DNA of 64,000 nucleotides. It comes from a virus. The stretch lies in IMG/VR virus record IMGVR_UViG_3300003890_000014, positions 48,814 to 112,813 of that record, one strand, 5' to 3'. The translations under genes were made by a program, and so were the position numbers. This document shows positions 5,223 through 41,780 of this stretch, piece after piece. A model generated the notes under the pieces. That model worked only from the letters and a program-made list of their open reading frames with translations, was not told the DNA's origin and did no database searches. Each line of letters opens with the position of its first letter. Position 1 is the stretch's first letter.

Positions 5223-5453
5223 TTATTCTCCTTTAGGGTTCTCAGTTTGGTTTAAGGGTTCTATTAAAAATTGCATTTTGACTTGTATACCGTATATTTG
5301 TGCTATTCGATTTGCTTCATCACAAGCTTTGTCCATGATTTGTCTAAGCTTTTCGCCAATTCTTTGGCTAAGTTGATCTGCCTCTTCTTCAGACAGTTTT
5401 TCTAGATCTACTTTCCTAACTCGTTCTTCCATATTATATCCCAATCCTTTCAA
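5223..5453 (-). CDS. Hypothetical protein (probable start 5432, MEERV)
   Basis: Fills the gap between two structural genes, co-oriented. Confidence 0.55.
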   Translation of the reverse strand: MKGLGYNMEERVRKVDLEKLSEEEADQLSQRIGEKLRQIMDKACDEANRIAQIYGIQVKMQFLIEPLNQTENPKGE

Positions 5454-5467
5454 ACTTTTGAAATTTA

Positions 5468-7807
5468 TTATAACTGCCCTATAATAGCAACGTTTACTAT
5501 TAGATCTTTTAAAGTAGGATTAGAAGTATTTCTAGAGATTACTCCCAACCTAATAACCCAATCTCCCGCTACAAAACCACCGACGCCAATGTCAGGTTTA
5601 ACATTTGTAATATCTCCAGTTTTAGATACGTATACTGGTTCTCCATAATCTGCGGTCGTTGTAATATCTTTAAGAACTCCACTAACTACTACACTTCCTT
5701 GCGCCGCATTTACAGTGTTTGCTGCTAAGACACCTACACATGCTAAAGCTTCTGCTTCAATAGAAACATCAATATCTTCCATATAACCTAAAGAATTCAC
5801 TCTAATAGGTTTTAATTTATTAATGGTAGAACCAGTTTGATTCTCAAGTGGAACTTCGCCAGAAGCTGCGGTACCGGCACCTGCACCGATGGCGCTAATA
5901 TTTATAGTAGATCCACCGTTCTTTTTGTATTTAAGATCTCCAGTATTATCTACCCATAATCCATCTTGAGCGGGAAGTGGGTCTGAAGCTTCTCGACTAA
6001 AAGTTATACCTTTAGGATCGATAATTCCGGTAACATCGATATCACCATTAAATACTGCTATCTTACCTGGAGGTCCATTTACGGTAAAAGGAAAGCCAGG
6101 AGTAACAAGAATCGTAGAACCATTATTGTAAGCATTTTGTAAACTTACTGGTCCACCACCGCCGCCTACAAATCCACCAACTACAGCATGTCTAAAAGTA
6201 AGGCGATCTCCTACTACAAGAGGAATTTGAATCTGAACTATAGAAGAAGGATTACCTATAGTACCAACTTCAGTCCAATCATCTCCAACAAAAAGATAAA
6301 TACCATTTAAATAAAGTTCAAGTCCACCACTACCTACAATATAATACTCAGTACTATTTCCATCTCTTGAATCAAGAGGAAGACTTAAGTTGGTGGCAGG
6401 AGAAACTGGACCAGTAAATTCATTATCATTAGCTGGAGCACCAGCGACGATATCCATTTTTTCTTCATATGGATTACCATTGAGTACTGTATTTAAAAAA
6501 TTAATATTTTTAGCATTTTCTGAAATTGCGGTAACTAAGGTAGAGGCTGTGGTGAATTGTCCAGGAAGAGATGGATCTGGAAGTTCAGTATATGGTACTG
6601 AAGTAGCAGTCTCGGGGTCGAATCCTAAGAAAGTAGCAAGAGATTCAGTAGTCTCGTCATTAATTTCTTTTGCTTCGCCAGCGTCTAATTCGCCTAAACC
6701 TCTAAGATAAAGTCTAGAACCTTCTCTGTAAGCAAGCCAATATACATCGTCATCAAGGGGTACACTACCACGAGCTGAGACTCTATAGTTTGTAGCTGTT
6801 AAACCTACTGAATCATAAGTTACAGTAGTAAGAGGATCAGGAAGTTCTATCCATAGCACTTCTCCATCAGCAATAGAGATTGCATTGCCACCTTCTTGTC
6901 GAGTAAGTTGAATATTAGAGGTATTATCAAAAAGTCTTACATAAGCAATAACGTCAGAATCAAGAGGGATTCCAGAATCATCAGTAATAGTAAGTGCAGT
7001 ACCAGTCCAATAGAATCTAGCTCCTGCAGTAGCTCCTACTAAAATACTTAAACCAGTAGCTCTAAAAGAACCACCTAAAGTAATTGGAGCTTGCTCAAAC
7101 CAATAGGTTGTACCTTTAATTTCTCGAATACTGTCCATGACAGCATCAAAAAATTGTTTAAAATTCTTGATGTCTTTATCAGCACCTGTGAATTGTGTAT
7201 TGACAGGTTCAGTTCTAGATGCCCATGAAAAAGCAAAAGTTGGATTTGTACCACGACCTAATCTAAAAAACAGATCTCGTTTGTCTCGGATTGCAGTGAT
7301 TACACCTGAACCGTTTACATCAACTTCACAAACTTTAACTTTATCTGCATCGCCTGAAAAATTTGAGGTATTAATTACTAGGCTGGCTTTAAGAAAAGTG
7401 AAAGTATCTACAATTTGTGAAAACTCTGCGCCTTGCCCCCCAGCTGCAGTTGGGTCCCAAAAAGCTCTACTATCTGCGCCACCTGTATCTTGAGTTACAG
7501 AAATTTCAATGTAATTAGTGGTAGCTGGAGAAAGACTTGAGGAAGATAGGGCAGAAAGACTAGGTGCTCCAATATAAAGCACGCCATCGTCTTGGCCCAT
7601 AATAAGAGAAGAATTTGCAATGGCTACTGAAATAGTGTTAGTTCCAACGCCAGTAGCATTGAATCCAGAAAATATAAAATTTTGATTGGTCCAGGCGTTT
7701 CTTTGAATCGCTTTAAAATCTGCACAAACAAAGTCCTCGATCTTATTAAAATCAGGTAAATCGAGACGTTGATTCGGGAGGATTCTGGTCCTTTGAAGTA
7801 AAGCCAT
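5468..7807 (-). CDS. Baseplate/tail-fibre attachment protein
   Basis: 779 aa beta-rich ORF immediately downstream of the wedge proteins. Confidence 0.6.
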   Translation of the reverse strand: MALLQRTRILPNQRLDLPDFNKIEDFVCADFKAIQRNAWTNQNFIFSGFNATGVGTNTISVAIANSSLIMGQDDGVLYIGAPSLSALSSSSLSPATTNYIEISVTQDTGGADSRAFWDPTAAGGQGAEFSQIVDTFTFLKASLVINTSNFSGDADKVKVCEVDVNGSGVITAIRDKRDLFFRLGRGTNPTFAFSWASRTEPVNTQFTGADKDIKNFKQFFDAVMDSIREIKGTTYWFEQAPITLGGSFRATGLSILVGATAGARFYWTGTALTITDDSGIPLDSDVIAYVRLFDNTSNIQLTRQEGGNAISIADGEVLWIELPDPLTTVTYDSVGLTATNYRVSARGSVPLDDDVYWLAYREGSRLYLRGLGELDAGEAKEINDETTESLATFLGFDPETATSVPYTELPDPSLPGQFTTASTLVTAISENAKNINFLNTVLNGNPYEEKMDIVAGAPANDNEFTGPVSPATNLSLPLDSRDGNSTEYYIVGSGGLELYLNGIYLFVGDDWTEVGTIGNPSSIVQIQIPLVVGDRLTFRHAVVGGFVGGGGGPVSLQNAYNNGSTILVTPGFPFTVNGPPGKIAVFNGDIDVTGIIDPKGITFSREASDPLPAQDGLWVDNTGDLKYKKNGGSTINISAIGAGAGTAASGEVPLENQTGSTINKLKPIRVNSLGYMEDIDVSIEAEALACVGVLAANTVNAAQGSVVVSGVLKDITTTADYGEPVYVSKTGDITNVKPDIGVGGFVAGDWVIRLGVISRNTSNPTLKDLIVNVAIIGQL

Positions 7808-7865: not shown

Positions 7866-9758
7866 TTATGTAAAAACCAGAGGGCCTTGTCCAGTTAAGG
7901 CTCCCCTATAATCAGGGCTTTCGGATGGACCACAAGTCCTACAAACACATTCAAATAAAACTTCTGGGAATGAGATCAGAAATCTAATGACTACTCCTGC
8001 TGCTAATAGCTTCTTAATGAGGTTCTGGGCAGCTTGGCGGGCTTCTTCAGTACCCACTACATAAACAGCGTAGTCTTCGCCTGTAACCCTTGGAATAGTA
8101 GGGGAATCTGAGATGAAATTAATTTTTCTTCCAATTAAATGCTCTTGTTGAAATATATAACTTGCGTCAATCAGTAAAGTAGAGTTATTTGGTCTGCTAT
8201 TGTACTGGATTGGGCCTTCCTGTTCAGACCTTCCAAAGTTCAATAGAATCTTACCTGGCTTATTGGGAAAGCTTGCTGCGTTCGCCACTGAAAGGGTTGG
8301 TACAATTGATCCGCTATTGACTGTGGTAGATAGTTCTGTACTAACTCCAGTTACAGTAAATAATTGACCAGTTGGATCAAACAAGTATGCAGAAGGATAG
8401 TCAGTCACAATAAGATCTGGATCTTGCTGTAAAGTAGTTATAAATCCTAATACTATATTTGCTGTACCTCCAGTAATTTGATACTCAGAGCTTCCTTCTG
8501 TAGTTCTTAGACCTACTTTTTTATAGTTACTTCCCTGACCGTGTGTAAAAGCTTCTAAAAATGTTAGCTGATTATTTATAACTTCTACTACCTCTTCTGC
8601 GGTCACTGCTGAAGGGTCAACAAAATCAGATGCATGAGTAAAAGTAACTGTAAAAGGATTCCCATCAATAGTTAGAGTTAAAGTAGAAGATACACCTAAT
8701 CCGCTAAAGTCAAATACTTCTTCATTAGAGTAAATTTCTAACTTATCTTGTTTAGGGTGAGCAGCACCTCTTAGGGTTCTCCTAAGAACTGGAACAGAAC
8801 TAGGAATTTTAATTACTAATTCATTAGGATTGATTTCGTAAACACTAGCTTTAACTTCAGTTTGTTTTACTAAAGAGAAATTTAGTCTTGCTGGAGTATT
8901 GGCATCGCCGCCTAAAATTTGGATAGAACCTAGTAGTCCTGGCGTATTTGTTCTTAAATTTAATTTATTTCCAGAAAGAGGATCTAAAAATTTACTGGCG
9001 GTTATATTTAAGTTGTGTTCAGGGTCAGCGTTAATAAATGCGACTAACTCATCTACAGATATATTAGTGATGTCATCAAAAGCGTAAGGTTTGAATCGAA
9101 GAGTCACTGCGGGTTTGTTATCTACTTTATAGTCAAGAGTTCTTACTATTCCTAAAGAAATATTACTGTTAATAGCGATATCACTATCCCATTCCATAGA
9201 TAGGTCAAGCTCAGTATCACTATGAATAGCCGATACTTTTTTATAAGTATATCCAGAAGCAGCTGAAGCTTTAATGTAATCTCCAGGAGCAAGTTCTGTT
9301 AGAAATAGAGTTCCTGTTCCTTTAACTCTTTTTGTTCCCTTAATAAAACTAGCTGTTCCTGTTAACAGACTTACTGGACCAAAATTATAGGTTTCAGTTG
9401 TTCCGCTATTAATATTTGGTCTTGTAAATCCAGCTCCCCAAAATACATCTAATAAAGAGATAATAGTTTTACGAACTTGTTTTGGATAAAAAGACATTAC
9501 AGGTATAAGTTTACGGAAGTCATCATCACCCATGCCTAAATTAGGGTCTCTTGGAACTCCTACGTTATTACCTAAATAATCTAGATATCTTCCTTCTGCC
9601 TGTTCCACAAACAATTGATCTTTTGTATTTTGAATCTGAACTACAATCTCATCATCAGATAATCCCCATGCCTTTAAAAGACCACGGATCATTACGTTAC
9701 TCTCAGCTTTATAAAAACTCGGCAAACTACGAGCCATTCTCTGAAATTTATCCGCCAT
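7866..9758 (-). CDS. Baseplate wedge protein (P2 gpI/T4 gp7-like N-terminus, inserted modules)
   Basis: N-terminal AEGRYLDYLGNNVGVPR...DDDFRK and C-terminal KKLLAAGVVI are typical of gpI-like wedge proteins; follows the baseplate J gene. Confidence 0.65.
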   Translation of the reverse strand: MADKFQRMARSLPSFYKAESNVMIRGLLKAWGLSDDEIVVQIQNTKDQLFVEQAEGRYLDYLGNNVGVPRDPNLGMGDDDFRKLIPVMSFYPKQVRKTIISLLDVFWGAGFTRPNINSGTTETYNFGPVSLLTGTASFIKGTKRVKGTGTLFLTELAPGDYIKASAASGYTYKKVSAIHSDTELDLSMEWDSDIAINSNISLGIVRTLDYKVDNKPAVTLRFKPYAFDDITNISVDELVAFINADPEHNLNITASKFLDPLSGNKLNLRTNTPGLLGSIQILGGDANTPARLNFSLVKQTEVKASVYEINPNELVIKIPSSVPVLRRTLRGAAHPKQDKLEIYSNEEVFDFSGLGVSSTLTLTIDGNPFTVTFTHASDFVDPSAVTAEEVVEVINNQLTFLEAFTHGQGSNYKKVGLRTTEGSSEYQITGGTANIVLGFITTLQQDPDLIVTDYPSAYLFDPTGQLFTVTGVSTELSTTVNSGSIVPTLSVANAASFPNKPGKILLNFGRSEQEGPIQYNSRPNNSTLLIDASYIFQQEHLIGRKINFISDSPTIPRVTGEDYAVYVVGTEEARQAAQNLIKKLLAAGVVIRFLISFPEVLFECVCRTCGPSESPDYRGALTGQGPLVFT

Positions 9759-10332
9759 AACGATTTCCCTTTTTAAGATTATCTTCGGCCCATAGCGGTT
9801 GTAAATTTGTATAACGAAATGCTTCTTTATATTGTTCGTTATCTTTTAGATTGAAAATTGATAAAGGTTTTATATGATCAATATGCCAACCATTTTTACC
9901 GTAATTATCCCAAGACATTTCTGGCTGAAATTTAGATTCTAAATGCTTTTTTAATTGTTCAAATGAACAATCTAGCGCTTCAAGTGTTGATCCTTGTTTC
10001 TGATTATTCTTTAATGCTAGTCTAATTCTTGCTCTCATATTTTGAGCCAATATAAATATTTCTCGTTCTTTACGGGCCTTTTTTTGCCAGTTATTTTGTT
10101 CTATTCTTATTTTATCTTTTCTAGTAATTTTATACACATTTGATAATTCTTTTACTCGTTCAGGATTTCGTAATCTCCATCGACGTAGTCTCTGTCTTTT
10201 AGCTTCGATATTAACTAGCTCATAACTCTTACAACACAACTTACACCAAGGATGTAATCCATCTACTCTTCGAGTTTGTTTATAAAACTCTAACAATTCT
10301 TTCTCGATATTGCATTTGCTACAAGTCTTCAT
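9748..10332 (-). CDS. Free-standing HNH homing endonuclease
   Basis: N-terminal CxxC...CxxC (MKTCSKC, WCKLC); MSWDNYG..WHIDHIKPL...NLQPLWAEDNLKKGN; lower GC, Lys-rich; overlaps the next start. Confidence 0.9.
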   Translation of the reverse strand: MKTCSKCNIEKELLEFYKQTRRVDGLHPWCKLCCKSYELVNIEAKRQRLRRWRLRNPERVKELSNVYKITRKDKIRIEQNNWQKKARKEREIFILAQNMRARIRLALKNNQKQGSTLEALDCSFEQLKKHLESKFQPEMSWDNYGKNGWHIDHIKPLSIFNLKDNEQYKEAFRYTNLQPLWAEDNLKKGNRYGG

Positions 10333-13300: not shown

Positions 13301-14690
13301 CAGAGAAATTCAAAGCTTCGTTGGCTGTTGATGCTGAATCCAATTGCATGTTCTCATTTGTTCTAGTTCTAGGACTGATAATAACTTTACGACCATCTGA
13401 GTCTGTGATAGTACGTGCTTCAAATAAAGTTGCACGATTGTTGATGGCTTCCGCAATTTCAGTTGCCTCTGCTTTACTAGGAGTTTCAAAATCAGATGAT
13501 GCAAAAGTAAATGTCTCTTCATCCGTACCAATATTAAGTACTAAAGTTTCTAAACCCGAAAGATTAAAAGGTTCTACTTTTTGAGAAATAATAGTAGACT
13601 TAGCGATTGGGAAATTCTGTAATTGGAAGAATTGTTCTCCTCCAGTCGCTTGTGTAACTAATGTCTCTAATCCAATTGAACTAAAAGCGGGTTCTAAACC
13701 TCTACCGTTATCAATATAAACTTTCGTGGGACCATCGGCAATATTTACTGGAGGAATAATACTTACACTTACTACACTTGAGTTTGTATTCTCATCAATT
13801 AATCCAATAATACCGCTCTTAATAGATTGACCAGTTCCTCTAGACAAAGCTTGAATATAATCTCTAATTCTATCTCTTAAATCTTGATCTGATTCAACAT
13901 CTCGTCCATTTATAAATGGAAGTGGGTTAGTAACAGCGGCTGTTGGGAATGGAGCACTAGGAAAGGAGATTACTGAATTGGCGGGGACTTTAATTCCTCC
14001 TGGTTCTACTGCAGTGACAAGAATATTTGTTACTTCATCTTCGCCATCTAGTAAAACAACTTCTTGATTAATCTCAAATAAAACTTGCTCGCTTACATCT
14101 GATTCTGGAATTTCTACTTCAGTTCCAGCAGGAATACTTCTAATCCCTCCTTGAGCTAAAATCACACTCTCGTCTGTACCATGATCATTAATCAAAGCTA
14201 CATCTAACGAGATAGTCCAATATGATCCGTTATTAATTGGAGCAGAAGAATAAGAAATAGAACCTTCTGAATTAGCGGTGCCTCTCCCGATGTAGATTGC
14301 GCCTGAAGCAGGAAAACTGGAAGCATCGTCGATATTGATTATTGAAGATCCTGCGGTAGGTCCTGAAAGACCCGCATATAATTTTGTAGAGATTTTTGAA
14401 AAGGCTACGTCACTAATCGACACAAATCCACTATGTGGAGCAGACTGTTTTCTGCTTAGACCATATTCAGCGGCTCGCTTATCTAAATCTTCCCCTTCAG
14501 TAGTATCGAGATTATAATTGCGGATAATATTCAACATCTGAATATATTGTTGAAAATCTTCTTGTGCTGAAGTTTCGAGTAATGTGAGAGCTACTGATCC
14601 ATCAGTAAAATCTGTAATAGGAGTTTCCGCAGATAATTTAGCAGCTTGATCTGCTACAATTTGAGGAAATGATTTAGGTGTAAATTTCAT
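10335..14690 (-). CDS. Baseplate J-like (gp6) wedge protein, greatly enlarged (1451 aa)
   Basis: TDFTDGSVALTLLE, TTEGEDLDKRAAEYGLSRK, NGRDVESDQDLRDRI and C-terminal YVNSRGVGQDVVLSEIV..SVGGVFDV are Baseplate_J hallmarks. Confidence 0.85.
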   Translation of the reverse strand: MKFTPKSFPQIVADQAAKLSAETPITDFTDGSVALTLLETSAQEDFQQYIQMLNIIRNYNLDTTEGEDLDKRAAEYGLSRKQSAPHSGFVSISDVAFSKISTKLYAGLSGPTAGSSIINIDDASSFPASGAIYIGRGTANSEGSISYSSAPINNGSYWTISLDVALINDHGTDESVILAQGGIRSIPAGTEVEIPESDVSEQVLFEINQEVVLLDGEDEVTNILVTAVEPGGIKVPANSVISFPSAPFPTAAVTNPLPFINGRDVESDQDLRDRIRDYIQALSRGTGQSIKSGIIGLIDENTNSSVVSVSIIPPVNIADGPTKVYIDNGRGLEPAFSSIGLETLVTQATGGEQFFQLQNFPIAKSTIISQKVEPFNLSGLETLVLNIGTDEETFTFASSDFETPSKAEATEIAEAINNRATLFEARTITDSDGRKVIISPRTRTNENMQLDSASTANEALNFSELEVFTLKLYKNDKLLTKDGLTASLISLAQPFNLSTNVVTTTDSDITVVPNSRIVTKTVPGVNPFNQFVHPGDYIKFSGDSDLFYTRVLTVVSDTKFILDSAYPNAGGGLGNIVIWNSPQLEVAANGDIEQTEVISFGPNDFANPSQALALEVYNRIVQELNLSKIELAVDNTKIKIISEVENSEMSKMQVTGGGAATALGFCIPASINGLVTFSGGSKVVTGAGTLFTSDLQEGQWIKANLDGAGSWTKIESIESDTVLYLTEGYRGENRAAVASSKINFSILSQGKNADYTLNRSNGQIELQVPLSANDSLTAGSINTRAFSDSIPELYDFDSLGLTSDLIVCIDGGFNGTVTIGDGSAPYDTFIDTSLIGYSASLFNGFYIEWISGANYGQTGFVSSYNNLTGQISTIAGFSNPISNGDKFVLCQVINFVHASDFADAQNATAAEVVAVINAQLFGGKAETTLTNEVRIRTGNFQSSGKVQIKGGLANSVLAFSTTEAENQLANLAFVQSGNSDRNGNPAAKGFTLGPGQNLVAILDNDSLNKTFAVSLEAKGVVTGVGVGTFTDSVLGSKYTDAGYFNEFWIYWTAGLNTGSVQLVTAYSGVSGIITYQDIFPNTLPNPISSGDEFSIVPRTAENAVKFLNDFNITTLSIVGDADVVGISGDFVQLATKLPGSKGKVYVTGGTANEIGIPIQSIPGGSPVNDLTVNSIAGLAKGLFVDISLDGTVTTGDSLVPYDTFIASVLTSAIPSYFTGMTIEFLTGNNAGHKTTISSYNNITGQFVLASATINQISINDTFRINSSAYIVDIQGTSAPYTLSLNDQSNAPIDVTEFSLARNGTIRDNNGFNFSNIQVEGVDGYKYFTSLIQKVQWTIDGIDHDPNNYPGIGAAGTQFEVLAPVLVKLKLIIDVTTEEGVSLSSVSDSISNAILEYVNSRGVGQDVVLSEIVTAAQSVGGVFDVTISNHSSNIVVADGELARLDSSDLIIG

Positions 14691-15202
14691 ATTCTATTAC
14701 CTTTTTTAATATTATCCAAAGCTGGTAAATACTGTAAATTATAATCTACATGTAATCCTGTTATATTCTTTCCTTTAAGCGGAATGATATGGTCTACATG
14801 AAAACCTTTAGGACAATTTTTATAAATATCTTTAATCTTATCTAAGTTAGCCCATTTAGGAGTGGCGTTTAGCTTTGCGGCTCTGCGGTTTGCCTCTACG
14901 GCATTATAATATTTTCTATTAGTTTTTTTAGATATATTACTTAAGTGCCTAGCCTTCTCGCGATTATTTTCTCTCCATACTTTATTCCTTTTAAGAATAC
15001 TAAAACTACCATTTTTATAAAGCATCTTATGCCTTAAACTTTCGCAATTTTTGCAGTGGGATGCCCGACCATCTTTATGATGCTTAACCTTTTGAAATTC
15101 TACTATATTTTTAGTACTTAAACACTTAGAGCAAGTTTTAAACCCGAGAACTAAAAGTTCTATGTTATCCTTTATTTTGTAAGGCCGCCCTTTTGTTTTC
15201 AT
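14687..15202 (-). CDS. Free-standing HNH homing endonuclease
   Basis: CSKC...CKNC; RRAAKLNATPKWA; HVDHIIPLKG..GLHV.YNLQYLPALDNIKKGN. Confidence 0.9.
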   Translation of the reverse strand: MKTKGRPYKIKDNIELLVLGFKTCSKCLSTKNIVEFQKVKHHKDGRASHCKNCESLRHKMLYKNGSFSILKRNKVWRENNREKARHLSNISKKTNRKYYNAVEANRRAAKLNATPKWANLDKIKDIYKNCPKGFHVDHIIPLKGKNITGLHVDYNLQYLPALDNIKKGNRI

Positions 15203-25442: not shown

Positions 25443-27242
25443 TTAAGCAGACTGCCTAATGTTATCCAAAGTAATTCGGTTTAATACGAAATCGATTCCT
25501 TGAACTGGAGTTATAGTGATGTCAACATTAGCTACATTTCCACTAAGGCTAACAGTCAGATCTTTCCAACCAAGGTTATTATTAGTGTCATCACCTACAA
25601 GCAATTCTTCTCGCAGAAAGGTTGACATAATAGAGATAACAGTATTTTTAATTGCTTCAGCGGTTCCGGTTTTAGCTTTCTCACCAACAAAAATTGCTTC
25701 GAGTTGCTGTCTAAGATTATAAGCAACTGTATCAGCAGCAGCAAGAACATGTGGCCTGTTAAAAACAAAATTAGCGTCTTTGCTATAAGTAGAATTATGA
25801 AGAACTACTCGGAAACCACCGCTATCAACTTCTTCAAGAGCAATTAAACCACTATCGATTGCAAGTTCAACTTGTGTTCGAGGATTGAAATCTTCATGTG
25901 AAATACCATTAGCATTCAAAAGTTTGAATGTTGCAGGAGTTCCAACTGGCATACCAGCTTGCATTCCAGCTACCATACACGCAGCTGCCCAAGGCTCTTC
26001 AGTTTTGATAGAACCATCAGAACCAAGAATATCTACATCTTGGAAAAGCATAGAAGCTCTTTCGTGATTAAGATCAAGAGAAGCATCTTGAGTATTTGCG
26101 AATGTATCTTTTATAGATACATAACAATTTCTTTCACTTCTATTCTTAGTGTTTGAGGCTAAGATACAATGTGTAACAGCCTGAAGATTTACAGAATCTA
26201 TATCAAAAGTAGAAGCTGCGTCGGTCTTTCCTTCAGCTGCTAAATCAGCAGCATCTCTCGAAATAAGAGGAACGACGATATTACAACGAGAAGCTAAAAG
26301 GGCATCGAAACCGTCTTGGAAATCACTATTAGCAGAAGCACCTTTTACTCCGCCAGTCATAAACTTTTTGGCTTGAGTAGCAATAGTACCTTCTACATCA
26401 GCGATTGAAACAGCTTCAATTAAGCTTGATTCGCCATTGATAATATCTAGTAACTCTTTTTGTTGAGCACGAAGAGTTTTAGGAGTAGTTTTAATATCAA
26501 GAGGAGTAGAAATTGGATCAAGATCAATAGCTGGTTTAGAAGCGGCTAATTTATAAGTTGTAGTGCAGGTATAAGCAGTATGATTATCTACTAAATCCAC
26601 GATATCCTGAATACTCTTATTTGCAAGAGGGATTGAAAGGTTATCAGCTGCGCCTGTCACAGTAATATCAAAAGATCCGCCCTGAATGTCAAGAGTAGCG
26701 GCACTGCCTGCACCAGTATATTGGATTACCAACATTGGAGCATAAGCATTTTCAGAAAGAACTTCTTTCTTAGAACCTTTTTGTACAGTAATGATTCGTG
26801 CATTAACATTTACAATACCTGCATCAATTTTTACACTAATTAAGCTTTCGTCTTCTCCCCAGTTTTTTGAATTAAGGGTGAATAAATTTGCAAGGGCTGC
26901 GTTCTTAAGGGTCATCGAAGCTTGAGTAGATTGATTCGTTTTATAAACTCGAATCACTGAAGCACCATTAACAACTCGTGCATCACGAGCTGGAGATACT
27001 AGTAATCTAGCTGCATCTACAATCGGTCCAGATTTATATTTATCAGAGAGGGCTGCGATGTCCTCACTCGTAAAGGTTTGAACTCCTTCTTCAGATCCAG
27101 GTGCACCACCATCGGCTTCACCGATGATTGCAACGATTCCCGTTTGTGAAAGAGGAAAACCTCCAGTCAAATTTACTTTAGTCTCAGAATATGCACCAGG
27201 CTTCCTAATGTTAGCACCAGCAAAATTTATATTAATTGCCAT
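25443..27242 (-). CDS. Tail sheath protein
   Basis: IRKPGAYS...VAIIGEADGGAPG N-terminus; C-terminal VDITITPVQGIDFV; 599 aa, SPO1/Twort-like sheath. Confidence 0.9.
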   Translation of the reverse strand: MAININFAGANIRKPGAYSETKVNLTGGFPLSQTGIVAIIGEADGGAPGSEEGVQTFTSEDIAALSDKYKSGPIVDAARLLVSPARDARVVNGASVIRVYKTNQSTQASMTLKNAALANLFTLNSKNWGEDESLISVKIDAGIVNVNARIITVQKGSKKEVLSENAYAPMLVIQYTGAGSAATLDIQGGSFDITVTGAADNLSIPLANKSIQDIVDLVDNHTAYTCTTTYKLAASKPAIDLDPISTPLDIKTTPKTLRAQQKELLDIINGESSLIEAVSIADVEGTIATQAKKFMTGGVKGASANSDFQDGFDALLASRCNIVVPLISRDAADLAAEGKTDAASTFDIDSVNLQAVTHCILASNTKNRSERNCYVSIKDTFANTQDASLDLNHERASMLFQDVDILGSDGSIKTEEPWAAACMVAGMQAGMPVGTPATFKLLNANGISHEDFNPRTQVELAIDSGLIALEEVDSGGFRVVLHNSTYSKDANFVFNRPHVLAAADTVAYNLRQQLEAIFVGEKAKTGTAEAIKNTVISIMSTFLREELLVGDDTNNNLGWKDLTVSLSGNVANVDITITPVQGIDFVLNRITLDNIRQSA

Positions 27243-27258
27243 TTCAAGCTCCTATGTA

Positions 27259-27510
27259 TTAATAGCGTTTAAAAATTTTATCAAAATCTTCTTCCGTAGC
27301 TTCGTCAAGTTCGTTATTCTCAGCATATTTTTTCATTGGCGCTTTATGATGTGCTCGAATTTTTGAATTCCTCTTCATAAGCAGTTGAAAATATACATCA
27401 AAACTTAGAACTCTTTTAGTAGGTTTAGAAGTTTTTTTCTCTTCTGACTCTACTATTACTTCGCTATTTTCGTCTACTATATTTTTTTTATGAGACTTTT
27501 CAATTCCCAT
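27259..27510 (-). CDS. Hypothetical protein
   Basis: 83 aa co-oriented ORF with SD-like GGAG/AGGA. Confidence 0.6.
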   Translation of the reverse strand: MGIEKSHKKNIVDENSEVIVESEEKKTSKPTKRVLSFDVYFQLLMKRNSKIRAHHKAPMKKYAENNELDEATEEDFDKIFKRY

Positions 27511-27556
27511 TATATCCTACTCCATTATTATATACTACAAAACTTAATTATTTCAT

Positions 27557-27721
27557 TTAATCTGAAATGTCGGTGATAACAACAGTTTCCTCACTATCAG
27601 GTTTAGGAGATGGTACTCTTAATGTCAGATCAAAACAGTCAAGTTTGTTATGTTTTCTTAAGTTGTCTTTTGCCCACAGTAGTTGTAGATTATCTAATCC
27701 CCAATTAGTACAGACTTTCAT
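27557..27721 (-). pseudogene. Collapsed HNH endonuclease relic fused in frame to a displaced copy of the upstream gene's C-terminus (54 aa)
   Basis: MKVCT-NWGLDNLQLLWAKDNLRKHNKL-DCFDLTLRVPSPKPDSEETVVITDISD*; the first half matches the HNH start and end motifs of 9748-10332, the second half duplicates the end of 27725-28654. Confidence 0.8.
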
Positions 27722-27724
27722 ATA

Positions 27725-28654
27725 TTACTCGTCAGACGTATTTGTTATCACTATAGTATCCTCACTATCGGGTTTTGGGGCTGGCACTTTTAACGTAAGG
27801 TCGAAACAATCAACAAGGTTGACTTCAGCCTGATCCCAGTCGAACTCCGTTATACAGTTCACATCTATATATCTACTAAACACATTCTCCCCCGAGAACG
27901 TATCCTCTCTATCAAATATACTAGCAGTTCCTCGGTCTAAATGCAATCCCCTGTTAATCATAGAATCTTGTCTAGATTTAAGAATATACATGACTATATA
28001 ATACAGGTACTTAGCAATATGAATGTCATCTTTTGCATGACAGCCTAAACGTATAGTTTCTCGAAGCCTAATCATTCGTCTTTCAGTACGCTTAAAATCA
28101 ATCCAGCTCTCTATTCTGCCACCTGCTGCTAAACTAGGTTCCATACCAGAGCCTATATTGATAAATTTATTTCCTGACAAATTGCTGTTGCCAGGTTTTA
28201 TATCGAACTTAGTTCCTAACGAATCCACAAAAATAAGATTTGGACATACCCCGCTTAAGTCTGCAGCGTTTATAATTGTCAATTTCCCTGTTAGAGTATC
28301 ATAAGTTCCAGGATCGACTACAGGTACAATTACGGTAGGAGTCTTATCTTCTTCTTCATCTAAGTACTCATTTCCTAGATTCTGAATTCCCTCAGACTCA
28401 TCTGCACGAATAAGTTGAATTGATATGCACGGTATGACGGTTTGAATCATGGAATGCGACTGAGTGAGTTTAATTTGATTATTTTGAATGTAAGTCTTTA
28501 GGCGAGTAATTTGAGTTATTCCAAATTGATTGATGAAATGTGCTTCTGTAAAACGACTGAATAGATCGTCTAATTTATTGGGATTAGTTTTAAGATCTCC
28601 TAATCCATCTCTGAGTACGGTTTCGATTACAAATTCTGTTAATGGAGCGCCCAT
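27725..28654 (-). CDS. Tail completion/terminator-like neck protein
   Basis: 309 aa; IPCISIQLIRADE motif; position between neck genes and sheath. Confidence 0.55.
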   Translation of the reverse strand: MGAPLTEFVIETVLRDGLGDLKTNPNKLDDLFSRFTEAHFINQFGITQITRLKTYIQNNQIKLTQSHSMIQTVIPCISIQLIRADESEGIQNLGNEYLDEEEDKTPTVIVPVVDPGTYDTLTGKLTIINAADLSGVCPNLIFVDSLGTKFDIKPGNSNLSGNKFINIGSGMEPSLAAGGRIESWIDFKRTERRMIRLRETIRLGCHAKDDIHIAKYLYYIVMYILKSRQDSMINRGLHLDRGTASIFDREDTFSGENVFSRYIDVNCITEFDWDQAEVNLVDCFDLTLKVPAPKPDSEDTIVITNTSDE

Positions 28655-28656
28655 TT

Positions 28657-29325
28657 TTATCCTTCCAACCTTTGTCTAATAACTTCTTCTAGATTCTCAT
28701 TTATAAAATCCTCTAAATCTTCAAATATCTTGGCTCCGCTAAATCCACTCCAGGGATCTGAATTATCAGAGATTCTTTTAATAGCTAAGTAAGATATTGC
28801 TCCAGAAGTGAGATTTTGTGATTTTAAAATATCCTCAATTCTATTTACAGTCACTTTTTTAGCTTCTGGTTTTTTCATTCCAGGACTAGAAAAATGAGCA
28901 ATGATATCTTGAGCATTTTTGGGATTAAAAGATTTGGCTGAAATTTTTTGTCCTGACTTAGTAACTAAATTATCGGCATCTTTTGCAAATGGGACATCGA
29001 CATATCTCTTACCATTCTCTTTATTATACTTTGCTCTAGCGCCATTTAAAATGGCGTCAGAAACTTCACCTTCTGCAAATCCATCTTCCATCCATAAAGC
29101 GAGTTTTCCATCGATTCTAATTAAAAATTCTCCAGGATTCACTTCATTAATTTCAAATCCATTATTCCAGTGTTGTTTTGCGGAATCAGATTTAAGATTA
29201 GTTTCTACAAGATGTCCTGCTTCAGCTTTAATTTGACGAGTAAATTCAGAAGTAGCTTCAGCAATAGCTTCTTCAACTTCTCTAGTAAGTTCTTCAGGAG
29301 TTTTGTCAAATTTAAACTTAAACAT
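28657..29325 (-). CDS. Neck/head-tail joining protein (HK97 gp10-like)
   Basis: LALWMEDG...GKRYVDVPF...SDNSDPWSG motifs typical of large-myovirus neck proteins. Confidence 0.55.
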   Translation of the reverse strand: MFKFKFDKTPEELTREVEEAIAEATSEFTRQIKAEAGHLVETNLKSDSAKQHWNNGFEINEVNPGEFLIRIDGKLALWMEDGFAEGEVSDAILNGARAKYNKENGKRYVDVPFAKDADNLVTKSGQKISAKSFNPKNAQDIIAHFSSPGMKKPEAKKVTVNRIEDILKSQNLTSGAISYLAIKRISDNSDPWSGFSGAKIFEDLEDFINENLEEVIRQRLEG

Positions 29326-29327
29326 AA

Positions 29328-30092
29328 TTAGCTATTTGGATCGTAATAAGTGTTAGGAGGTAATGGGTTACCTTCTTTATCTTTACGCTCCAATAAATAG
29401 TCCCTTTTAAGTACCCAAGTTTCTGGAAGTTTTACATACGTTTTATCGTCTACCGTAACTTTTTGAGATAAGATCTCGTCAGGTCTAAGATTATACTGAC
29501 TATATCGATCCCTATGAACAGCTTTAATAGCTCTAAAAATAGGGTGATGTTTATAGTAAATACTATAAACCGATTTATCAGCTGGTTTATGCGTACCAAT
29601 CCATTTAATATCTCCGTTTATGTCAATCTCAAAATCAGCTCCAATATAGAACTGTTCTCGCACATTATTAATTACTGTAAATATCCCGATAACATCACAA
29701 GCTGGATACTTTAAACGATCTGTAGAAGTTGCCTCTTGTCTTTGAATTAACTCAAAGAAGTCTTCAGCAAAGTCTAATAGTTCGACTCTAGTATAAGTGT
29801 GTAGTGTTTCTCCAGAAAGAAAAGATACAAGAATTTCGTCGATATGAAAGGTTCCCTGAATCTTAAAGATCTCGGTCAAACTTTGTTGTTGGAATAATGC
29901 TATTGTCTCTCTAGGACAAAAATCGATCATAAAATTATTACATACAGTACAATTTACATCATGATCGAAAGTTTCCAGACTTGTCATATTAGGACACAAG
30001 GTAGATCTATACACCTTGACTCTGACACCTAAGTCTCGAATCACTTGATCTAACTTATCTGGATTTATTCCGTTCGTTAGTTTGACGCTCAT
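29328..30092 (-). CDS. Head closure/neck protein (SPO1-like)
   Basis: STLCP...CTVCNN Cys motif, YSIYYKHHP, KLPETWVLKR. Confidence 0.6.
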   Translation of the reverse strand: MSVKLTNGINPDKLDQVIRDLGVRVKVYRSTLCPNMTSLETFDHDVNCTVCNNFMIDFCPRETIALFQQQSLTEIFKIQGTFHIDEILVSFLSGETLHTYTRVELLDFAEDFFELIQRQEATSTDRLKYPACDVIGIFTVINNVREQFYIGADFEIDINGDIKWIGTHKPADKSVYSIYYKHHPIFRAIKAVHRDRYSQYNLRPDEILSQKVTVDDKTYVKLPETWVLKRDYLLERKDKEGNPLPPNTYYDPNS

Positions 30093-36426: not shown

Positions 36427-38259
36427 TTAACCTCTTGTTCTTCTCCAAGTAATATAATCAATATCTGTAGTTCTATTGGAAGTACCTAAAGTTTTTTCTA
36501 ACTTAAATACAAATTTTAAAGCAGAAGTTGGAAGTGGTACTGAAATCTTCCCAATAAAAACACTATCAATATAGATAAAAGCAGCAGAGCCATCAGCAGC
36601 AGTTACGCACTTTAATCTATACCATCTATTTGCAACAATGTCAATTCCAGTGTCTAATCTTGTTTGACTAGAAGAATTTATAACATCAGCAAACCAACGG
36701 TTAGAATATGCAACAGCAGCAACATTTGCTGTTGTGAGTACATTAGTTAAATTTGCATTTGCATCTGCATAAGTAAAAGGAATTCCTGCTACGTCTGCAG
36801 TTAAAATTAAAGTTGTAGTACCAGATGCTGTAACTGGTAATGGACCATCTGCATTAATTGATGATATTAAACTACTAACAATAGTCGAGGCTACTGGGGT
36901 TGCAGTATTATCTACTGAAGTGATATTTGCAGAAGTTGACCAAGTGAAATTTGCTCCTACGACATCTCCTGTAATAATTACTGGCTTTGTTCCACCAGTC
37001 GTTACGGCGGTAACAGTTGCGCCAACATTTGTGTTAATTGCGTTTGCTAAACCAACTGCTATTTCTGCATCTGTTGCATTCGCATCTGAAGTATAGTCAC
37101 AGTTAATACCATTAATTGTAACTCGATATAAAGTATTGTTTGCTCTTGTCCAAGTGGTTAATTGGATAGTCTTAGTAGTTGTATAAGTATAGGTATAATT
37201 AAATCCATTAATAACTTCTGTAAAGGTTTGTGTTGGGGCTTTTGAGGTTGTTACAGGAGTTACAGTTACAACTTGAGCAACAGCGGTTACAGCATAGGTA
37301 GGTTCAGAAGTAAAAATAACACCATTTGCTGGTGCTCCTGCTAGAATTCCATCCATTAATCCATATCTACAAGTAAATTTTTGAGCAGAATCTTGAAGAA
37401 TTGGAATTCTAACTCTAATTTCAAAAGATTCAGGTTGAGCACCAAGTTTTAAACGATTTACTCCATTAAAAGAGTAAACTAGAGGACGAGATGTTGCTGA
37501 TATTAAACTTGAAAGAGTGTGAATACCTTCGTAGTCATTACCTACAACAGTTGTAGCGCCGTCAATATCTGATAGCCCATTATTGTCTACTTTAGTAAAA
37601 GCGTATTGGTTGTCATTTCCTCCATTACCAGCATAAGCGTCAAACATGAAATCTTCGAAACCATCTTTTACACCAGCAAAATCAGGATTAGTTATATCAA
37701 TCAAATCAGAAACAAGTATCAACCAAGTCCCATCTGCAGTTTCATTTGTTTTAAGAGTAACTTGAACATACGAATTTACTGCTATTTGATAAAGTTGAGT
37801 ACCACCAAAAAATAGAAGTTTGATTGGGATTGATGATTGATTATAAAATTCGAATTTAGTAGAACCTAAAGCAGGAGCTTTTAATGTAGTAGCATCAGGT
37901 AATCTAATACTAAACATTGTTGAGTTGCCTGTAAAAACATTACAAAAGGCAGACTCATTATTTAAAGTTAATTCACCACCATCGGTGAGAGAAACTGCTA
38001 CTTGTCTAGGAGAATAATGAGTGTGAGTGAGGTTATTAATTCTGTGAACATGATCTGCACGAGCTTTTTTTCTAGAAGTTCCTAAAGCATTATCTAGGCC
38101 GATTACAACAGGTATATCTGTGAGATTAGCTTCTTCAATAGCATCTTGAACATTTAAAGATGAAATTTGGGAAGGTCCGGCTTCCCCATTGACTTGGGGA
38201 TTCCTATCTGCTTCAAAAGGTACGGATTGTGCTACTGGTGTAGTAAACGGTGCTGGCAT
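36427..38259 (-). CDS. Fibre-like virion protein (Thr-rich, lectin-like C-terminus)
   Basis: NVQDAIEE, ARADHVH fibre motifs, LPDATTL, C-terminal NRWYRLK..IYIDSV..IDYI (ConA-like). Confidence 0.6.
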   Translation of the reverse strand: MPAPFTTPVAQSVPFEADRNPQVNGEAGPSQISSLNVQDAIEEANLTDIPVVIGLDNALGTSRKKARADHVHRINNLTHTHYSPRQVAVSLTDGGELTLNNESAFCNVFTGNSTMFSIRLPDATTLKAPALGSTKFEFYNQSSIPIKLLFFGGTQLYQIAVNSYVQVTLKTNETADGTWLILVSDLIDITNPDFAGVKDGFEDFMFDAYAGNGGNDNQYAFTKVDNNGLSDIDGATTVVGNDYEGIHTLSSLISATSRPLVYSFNGVNRLKLGAQPESFEIRVRIPILQDSAQKFTCRYGLMDGILAGAPANGVIFTSEPTYAVTAVAQVVTVTPVTTSKAPTQTFTEVINGFNYTYTYTTTKTIQLTTWTRANNTLYRVTINGINCDYTSDANATDAEIAVGLANAINTNVGATVTAVTTGGTKPVIITGDVVGANFTWSTSANITSVDNTATPVASTIVSSLISSINADGPLPVTASGTTTLILTADVAGIPFTYADANANLTNVLTTANVAAVAYSNRWFADVINSSSQTRLDTGIDIVANRWYRLKCVTAADGSAAFIYIDSVFIGKISVPLPTSALKFVFKLEKTLGTSNRTTDIDYITWRRTRG

Positions 38260-41132: not shown

Positions 41133-41780
41133 TCAAGTCTTGTGTCTCCAAGATTCGTTGGAGTGGGTTCCATCAAAGGAGTTGTTCTTTTGTTTGTTCT
41201 CTGTGTCCGTCAAATACTGAAGATTGTCTAAAGTATGTAACCCGCACACGTTTTCGTTGATTAGGGGGATTATATGGTTTATAGTGTGTCCTTCGGGGCA
41301 GGCTTGGTAAAAGGCTTTGATACCGTCTAGGTCTGCCCACCGAGGGGTGGCATTTTCTCGTTGGAACCTGCGTTTGGCAGACTGTGCTCTAGCTGCTAAC
41401 TTTACCTCTGGTTTTGCTCCTCTAATTTTGGCATATTCGGATATCTTTTCTTTGTTAAGTTCGTAATATTTATCATGATATTCTTTCATGTATTTATCGT
41501 ATTTTTCTCGATTAGATTCTACCCATTTCTTATGTCTGGTGTTATATAACTTTTTGTTTTCTTGGTAATCTTTAGCATTCCACTCCTTTTTGCGTTGAAT
41601 TACTTTGGGAGAAGACCAATACTCTTTTAATTGATCTTTTTTTCGAATTCTATATTCCTTCATCCTAATTCTTTTACAAAACTTACACTCTTTTGAATAT
41701 CCATTTGCGGTTTGAGGATGTTTGCAAAATTCTACTAATTCATACTCTTTTTTACATACTAAACAAGATTGTTTTTCCAT
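41133..41780 (-). CDS. Free-standing HNH endonuclease (DH->NH variant)
   Basis: CLVC...CKFC; NATPRWAD; HTINHIIPL..VCGLH..NLQYL...N..K.N; same family as 14687-15202. Confidence 0.85.
   Translation of the reverse strand: MEKQSCLVCKKEYELVEFCKHPQTANGYSKECKFCKRIRMKEYRIRKKDQLKEYWSSPKVIQRKKEWNAKDYQENKKLYNTRHKKWVESNREKYDKYMKEYHDKYYELNKEKISEYAKIRGAKPEVKLAARAQSAKRRFQRENATPRWADLDGIKAFYQACPEGHTINHIIPLINENVCGLHTLDNLQYLTDTENKQKNNSFDGTHSNESWRHKT

Follow-up and report, generated by a model that had tools for sequence, protein, structure and literature searches.

The usual view of free-standing homing endonucleases is that they stay out of essential coding sequences unless an intron or an intein protects them. 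The closest described counterparts of the locus reported here are the mORF gene hybrids of fungal mitochondria, found in atp6 of Allomyces macrogynus, in atp6, atp9, cox2, and nad3 of Glomus sp., in atp9 of Rhizopus, and in cox2 of Mortierella (PMC3630166), with further cases in atp6 and cob of Endoconidiophora (PMC6279837). In these hybrids, the full gene carries an inserted C terminus that has diverged at the DNA level, an endonuclease ORF comes next, and the native C terminus lies displaced downstream. The ORF may share the reading phase of the host gene, and degenerate endonuclease ORFs occur. The same mechanism has been published for the WHO homing elements at the yeast FBA1 gene (Coughlan et al. 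2020, eLife; PMC7282813), where the host gene has discordant 5' and 3' histories and where intein-like LAGLIDADG/zinc-finger proteins act in meiosis. Phage T4 provides cases of intronless homing by the free-standing endonucleases SegF, SegG, and MobE (PMC2988022): a nuclease gene located between phage genes cuts the neighboring gene in relatives that lack the nuclease and spreads with co-conversion of the flanks.

Here, we analyzed the window, a stretch of 64,000 nucleotides that belongs to a contig of 112.8 kb from an uncultured myovirus-like phage. One of its genes (g309) has its last 27 codons repeated, in another spelling, at the end of a 54-aa ORF (o54) that otherwise resembles the two ends of an HNH endonuclease. 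We think it rather probable that this locus, found in one genome, is the scar of a homing event that replaced a gene end and whose HNH later lost its middle. The layout matches that of the mORF hybrids, including an ORF in phase with the host gene and a degenerate endonuclease. It differs from them in its host, a phage virion gene instead of a mitochondrial respiratory gene, and in its nuclease, an HNH reduced to a 27-codon stub instead of a LAGLIDADG or GIY-YIG enzyme. Compared with the WHO elements, the discordance between the 5' and 3' histories is hinted at by a shift in GC3, and whereas cleavage and allele specificity of the WHO proteins were shown experimentally, the present case is known from sequence alone. 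The HNHs of this phage group resemble the T4 free-standing nucleases in their variable positions between genes, but the T4 cases leave genes whole or split into two polypeptides, whereas here the gene end is present twice. Duplicated gene ends are not mentioned in the review of T4 mobile elements (PMC2988022), and our searches of the open-access literature yielded no phage case in which a duplicated gene end accompanies a nuclease. The mechanism put forward in a preliminary description of the locus is not new, as the mORFs (PMC3630166) and the WHO elements (PMC7282813) document it already.

Genomic locus and host gene

Table 1. Features of the g309 locus and one comparison gene (positions in the window)
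Feature	Position	Strand	Description	Basis
254-aa gene	29328-30092	-	Virion module	
222-aa gene	28657-29325	-	Virion module, directly upstream of g309	
g309, 309 aa	27725-28654	-	Conserved neck gene, most likely tail terminator (tail-to-head joining protein); host of the insertion	
Last 60 g309 codons, including copy A	27728-27907	-	Candidate co-converted, donor-derived tract	GC3
Copy A	27731-27811	-	Expressed last 27 codons of g309 (followed by GAG, TAA); putatively imported, recoded 3' end	
o54, 54 aa	27557-27721	-	Chimera of HNH stub and displaced g309 end; stop codon, 27557-27559	
HNH N-terminal stub	27707-27721	-	MKVCT, o54 codons 1-5	Resembles intact HNH starts
HNH C-terminal remnant	27641-27706	-	o54 codons 6-27 (NWGLDNLQLLWAKDNLRKHNKL), lacking the catalytic core	Profile matches
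Copy B	27560-27640	-	Displaced 27-codon g309 end; putatively the native end	
Spacer, 46 nt	27511-27556	-	Upstream of o83; promoter-like TATAAT at 27532-27527	Promoter scan, relatives
o83, 83 aa	27259-27510	-	Conserved small ORF between g309 and sheath gene	tblastn; same position in most related loci
Tail sheath gene	25443-27242	-		PHROG 279, E 5e-51
Intact HNH gene, 194 aa	9748-10332	-	Same family; comparison gene outside the scar	Pfam HNH, E 0.0017

We looked into the arrangement of the genes around o54 (Table 1). The order 222-aa gene, g309, o83, and sheath gene is kept across 42 related loci, which come from viral contigs, metagenomes, and one MAG. The TAA stop codon of g309 is followed by TAT and then by the ATG of o54; with these 3 nt in between, o54 lies in the frame of g309. 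The position and layout of o54 are as first reported, but the statement that the ORF had been missed does not extend to all annotations, as a protein entry of JGI/IMG source exists in the protein collection, on two contigs that both also carry g309.

g309 has 126 homologues of ∼300 aa, the closest (P0002) with 71% protein identity and P0018 and P0024 also among the nearest. We found no match to g309 in Pfam or PHROG and none in a PDB sequence profile search with the g309 alignment. DNA (blastn) and protein (tblastn) searches of GenBank phages gave a single distant match, Myxococcus phage Mx1 (22%). An AlphaFold2 model of g309 (pLDDT 83) showed a sheet with helices on its flanks and an inserted sandwich. 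Its top Foldseek match was chain G of the phage 812 neck (E 1e-9, TM 0.53-0.58), and other matches were the necks of E217, Pa193, and Pam3, the gp7 terminator of A-1(L), and a contractile-injection-system (CIS) cap. From this modeled fold and from its position near the sheath gene, upstream of o83 and the sheath, we propose that g309 most likely encodes the tail terminator. That the host is a virion gene, as the preliminary description had assumed, agrees with the homologues and fold matches of this conserved neck gene.

Homing targets tend to lie in conserved motifs. The repeat in g309 begins at a D-C-F-D motif at codon 282, in which D282 is nearly invariant and F284 invariant; few motifs in the C-terminal region are as well conserved. 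Two strands are predicted in the duplicated tail, at residues 289-291 and 300-302. In phages 812, E217, Pam3, and Pa193, the C-terminal strand of the terminator complements domain I of the first sheath disc (PMC12886913). If g309 is indeed the terminator, the duplicated tail would be a working part of the virion, and an insertion at this place would have to supply a replacement end.

HNH remnant in the 54-aa ORF

We then compared o54 with intact HNHs of this phage group, six of which were aligned using the gene at 9748-10332 as the seed. With hhalign, residues 6 to 31 of o54 matched the last 26 columns of this six-HNH profile with a probability of 96.6% (E 6.9e-10), and a custom four-sequence HNH HMM also matched o54 (E 4.6e-5). 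A phmmer search of 1.84 billion protein representatives recovered an HNH with a near-identical terminal motif (P0124, E 1.5e-4); the remaining matches were o54 itself, one repetitive spurious match, and P0125 (1069 aa), in which no stretch was matched. PHROG 1035 (endonuclease VII) matched marginally (E 0.039), and no Pfam domain was found in o54. The ORF thus matches the C-terminal helix of the beta-beta-alpha-metal fold and the C-terminal motif N-L-Q-P-L-W-x-x-D-N-x-x-K of the HNHs of this phage group (PF01844 type).

At the other end of the HNH-like part, MKVCT compares with MKTCSKC in the gene at 9748-10332, with MKSCFKC in the HNH of locus L002, and with MTKVCSKC in an ORF at 37301-37714 of the genome, a likeness of 5 residues that is too short for statistics. 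The preliminary description had read o54 as the N terminus and C terminus of an HNH with the middle deleted. The motifs that it cited from the gene at 9748-10332 are present there, and the profile and sequence searches bear out the C-terminal part, while the N-terminal part is similar at a level below statistical support.

The 27 HNH-derived residues include neither the H-x-D-H catalytic core nor the N-terminal CxxC zinc finger. The W-H-I-D-H segment, kept in 6/6 intact HNHs with H, D, and H invariant, is absent from o54. Judged by these residues, the HNH part of o54 is a remnant and no enzyme. The intact relatives have 163-212 aa, so that about 140-185 codons would be gone from o54, in frame. 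HNHs of this type end 2-6 codons past the final N/K motif, and the HNH frame therefore enters copy B almost exactly at the HNH's own end.

Introns and inteins were considered as carriers. A search of Rfam (E ≤1, positions 26800-29000) gave only a subthreshold group II fragment in the body of g309 (18 bits; gathering score, 32), and no Pfam intein domain occurs in g309 or o54. We rejected both types of carrier on these grounds.

The same genome contains further HNH-like ORFs, at 14687-15202 (-) and 41133-41780 (-) of the window and at 37301-37714 (-) of the genome, which match the custom HMM with E values from 1.9e-8 to 1.3e-5. The GC3 of the ORF at 41133-41780 (0.36) is among the highest of the genome's ORFs of ≥150 aa. 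P0124 (199 aa) carries the C-terminal motif twice in tandem, NIQPLWAKDNLRKHN and then NLQPLWKYDNLSKGN, and looks like an HNH with the C-terminal stub of a second one fused behind it, which may also record that HNHs have replaced one another repeatedly at a single site.

Duplicated gene end

The sequences of copies A and B were aligned over their 27 codons. They share 58/81 nucleotides (72%) and 21/27 residues (78%), which places them beside the mORF hybrids, where high protein identity goes with low DNA identity (91% and 63.5%, respectively, for Glomus atp6). Eight codons are identical, 13 differ synonymously, and conservative replacements account for the other 6. The flanks of the repeat, compared over 60 preceding and 40 following nucleotides, bear no resemblance to each other. 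The 3-nt gap, the 21/27 residues, and the 13 synonymous differences among 21 codons reproduce exactly the initial coordinates and counts. Synonymous sites are saturated (pS 0.90 and pN 0.10 by the Nei-Gojobori method, in response to the call for a dN/dS comparison), and independent codon choice would predict 9.2 ± 2.2 identical codons, against the 8 observed. Copy B contains no stop or frameshift and fits the family tail profile with 41 bits, against 47 bits for copy A.

To place this repeat in context, we scanned the ends of all ORFs, both of the 112.8-kb genome and of 43 retrieved loci, for protein-level repeats at most 1.5 kb away. The pair of copies A and B scored 126 and the runner-up 51; the repeat is far above chance and the sole case in the genome and the 43 loci. 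No other gene in this set is accompanied by a recoded terminal duplicate, and the scan for HNH genes flanked by duplicated, recoded C termini, suggested with a wider pattern in mind, thus returned no second case and no sign of a systematic strategy here.

The longest identical run between the copies is 11 nt, and the scar should for this reason be hard to delete by homologous recombination. The same figure bears on the idea that the contig, being metagenomic, joins two strains in an assembly chimera. With no longer identical run there is no repeat for misjoining, and a chimera would not leave the two copies separated by a remnant of an HNH that is in frame with them; we regard this as extremely improbable.

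Could the two copies instead stem from an old tandem duplication in place, both having stayed under selection, with o54 a functional small protein and its HNH likeness incidental? The low pN relative to pS would agree with it, as would the facts that o54 is open and in the frame of g309 and that copy B fits the tail profile. Saturation would require a long history, yet neither the duplication nor o54 occurs in any of the 42 related loci, and among the 1.84 billion representatives o54 has no homologue; an unselected HNH stretch would not have stayed recognizable for so long, and the difference in codon usage between the copies (see below) would be left unexplained. We consider such a duplication improbable.

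We return to a junction of two diverged gene ends. The absence of an o54 counterpart from the 42 loci and the 1.84 billion representatives argues that o54 is young. Since synonymous sites are nonetheless saturated and the unselected HNH part is still recognizable, the divergence of copies A and B would predate their junction, and it most likely goes back to a time when the two ends belonged, as orthologues, to different phages. The low dN/dS can be explained without later selection on copy B. The earlier conclusion that both copies evolved under protein-level selection is accordingly unnecessary, orthologous ends of diverged phages being sufficient to explain the ratio.

Related loci

We then examined the insertion site in the 42 related loci and found it empty in 42/42. 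Scans of IMG/VR using the sheath protein and of GTDB genomes using the profile of g309 gave one locus each, both with an empty site. In relatives that have an o83 homologue, the gap between the g309 stop and the o83 start is 2-58 nt, mostly 42-47 nt, and the spacer usually contains an extended -10-like motif (TG-n-TAAAAT / GTAGTATAAT, loci L002-L038) located 14-24 nt upstream of the o83 start. From its sequence and placement, this motif is likely a promoter for o83 and the sheath gene. In the window, a 46-nt spacing and a similar promoter-like motif come after copy B and not after copy A, and copy B thus occupies the position of the native gene end.

A full-length HNH at this site was found in 0/42 related loci, which leaves the search for alleles with an intact HNH empty-handed. 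Fusions of an HNH with a g309-like tail were absent from the 1.84 billion representatives, and a word-based search for longer proteins sharing words with o54 gave none. When IMG/VR was scanned with o54 peptides, three of them from copy B, the sole match was an unrelated GC-rich HNH (L043), and from this result no empty allele with a copy-B-like end is present in IMG/VR. Neither did the related loci provide one, as no relative's tail is nearer to copy B than copy A is. Two observations had been named beforehand as jointly speaking against a homing origin, namely, that no relative has a full HNH here and that the remnant has no HNH profile match; the first holds for the 42 related loci, but the second does not, given the match at E 6.9e-10.

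HNHs of the same family do come and go between neighboring genes in the relatives. Intact ones (163-212 aa) are located between the 222-aa gene and g309 at L002:3505-3996, L012:3454-3999 (L012/L023), L031:3459-4001, and L041:737-1279, and another, L026:838-1476, lies between the 254-aa and 222-aa genes. These HNHs of the neck module are tightly packed, absent from other relatives, and not flanked by recoded terminal duplicates. Their presence or absence at module junctions indicates that mobile HNHs are active in this neighborhood.

These data also bear on an origin of o54 by fragment capture, in which illegitimate recombination between coinfecting relatives would have joined a 3' piece of an HNH gene to a g309 end, with neither a full HNH nor a cut ever having been involved. 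Statistical support covers the 22 C-terminal HNH codons alone, so that the 5-codon start could be due to chance, and the lack of a full HNH at the site in all 42 loci points the same way. We nevertheless hold this to be quite unlikely, because the start of o54 fits the M-K-x-C-[ST] pattern of this HNH group, lies 3 nt past the g309 stop in a packing as tight as that of the intact HNHs of the relatives, and is associated with a break that coincides with a conserved motif.

Origin of the two copies

Which of the two copies is foreign was addressed through codon usage. Copy B is typical of the genome (GC3 0.22; likelihood at the 42nd percentile of genome windows), whereas copy A is atypical (GC3 0.37; 6th percentile). 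The atypical tract extends upstream of copy A, as the last 60 codons of g309 have a GC3 of 0.467, within the top 0.9% of the genome's 60-codon windows in this post hoc comparison. The difference in GC3 between these 60 codons and the rest of g309 is +0.20, against +0.05 ± 0.065 in 21 relatives, and is the largest of the 22 genomes, in a direction in which the relatives also show a weak trend. Most relatives have a higher GC3 than this phage, and a related donor could for that reason explain the shift. We searched for a recombination breakpoint by windowed identity of g309 to 119 homologues, which gave no resolution at 60-75% identity. The GC3 evidence, although post hoc, agrees with the downstream context, and together they give moderate support to a foreign origin of copy A and of the last 60 codons. 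Copy B would then be the native end, as its composition over 27 codons and its downstream context suggest.

The arrangement X-A-h-B-Y is symmetric, the insert being either A-h or h-B, and the polarity might be reversed: copy A would be native, and the HNH fragment with copy B would have been imported after the g309 stop, for example, from a relative whose HNH frame already continued into a displaced terminator end. In sequence comparisons, copies A and B are each other's best match (score 120), and copy A scores nearly as high with relative P0018 (111), while copy B is close to copy A alone, a pattern that would suit an imported copy B. This polarity is at odds with the genome-typical codon usage of copy B but not of copy A, with the upstream reach of the atypical tract into g309, and with the o83 spacing and promoter-like motif that copy B shares with the relatives' gene ends. 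We judge it unlikely.

The favored polarity, with copy A imported and copy B native, corresponds to the original proposal that the old gene end was pushed downstream. The layout, the native context of copy B, and the foreign composition of copy A are in line with this proposal, but the relatives contained no matching empty allele.

Proposed history of the locus

We propose the following scenario. A related phage would have carried a free-standing HNH gene just downstream of its tail-terminator-like gene. Upon coinfection, the g309 of an ancestor of the present phage may have been broken at or near codon 282, within the D-C-F-D motif, and repaired from the HNH-bearing genome. On the left side, repair would have been homologous and within g309 and would have brought in the HNH gene together with the 3' end of the donor gene (copy A plus at least ∼60 codons). 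On the right side, the new DNA would have been joined to what the recipient gene retained beyond the break; these 27 native codons would thereby have stayed downstream as copy B, an in-frame continuation of the HNH gene that is followed by the native spacer and promoter. Copy A would keep the neck protein whole and, being spelled differently, presumably lacks the target site. A later in-frame internal deletion of roughly 140-185 codons would have taken the catalytic core of the HNH and spared 5 codons at its N-terminal end and 22 at its C-terminal end. From the present arrangement we infer where the cleavage took place, that copy A is resistant, that a full-length HNH was once there, and in which order these events occurred. 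The proposal that an HNH cassette invaded a coding sequence while carrying its own diverged 3' end is supported in part, by the HNH remnant, the layout, the context of copy B, and the composition of copy A, but not by a full-length HNH at the site, with 0/42 loci having one.

o54 might also have a role of its own. As an expressed miniprotein translationally coupled to g309, read in its frame, and bearing a well-formed C-terminal strand of the terminator, it could cap, or compete for, domain I of the sheath, or its DNA could be retained as a right homology arm for mobility. We deem either role very improbable.

The scar suggests that an essential virion gene can be invaded at its end by phage HNH elements that supply a new end themselves, and it would make visible a late stage in the life cycle of such an element, in which the nuclease is lost and the duplicated end remains. 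Short recoded duplicates could, in this way, mark past homing and mosaic 3' ends in phage structural genes. With a single genome and no enzyme, the locus is an illustrative fossil.

Two minor observations concern the related loci. L019:5229-7403 is a longer sheath gene (724 aa) from a distant relative, and in L020 the same sheath gene appears as two ORFs (5229-6389 and 6446-7402), reflecting a frameshift, a sequencing error, or an interruption. Contigs of this phage group also occur in MAGs labeled Saccharibacteria and Nitrosopumilaceae (L044 = CAYLHJ010000005.1; protein P0079); these are probably misbinned phage contigs, and the labels provide no evidence on the host.
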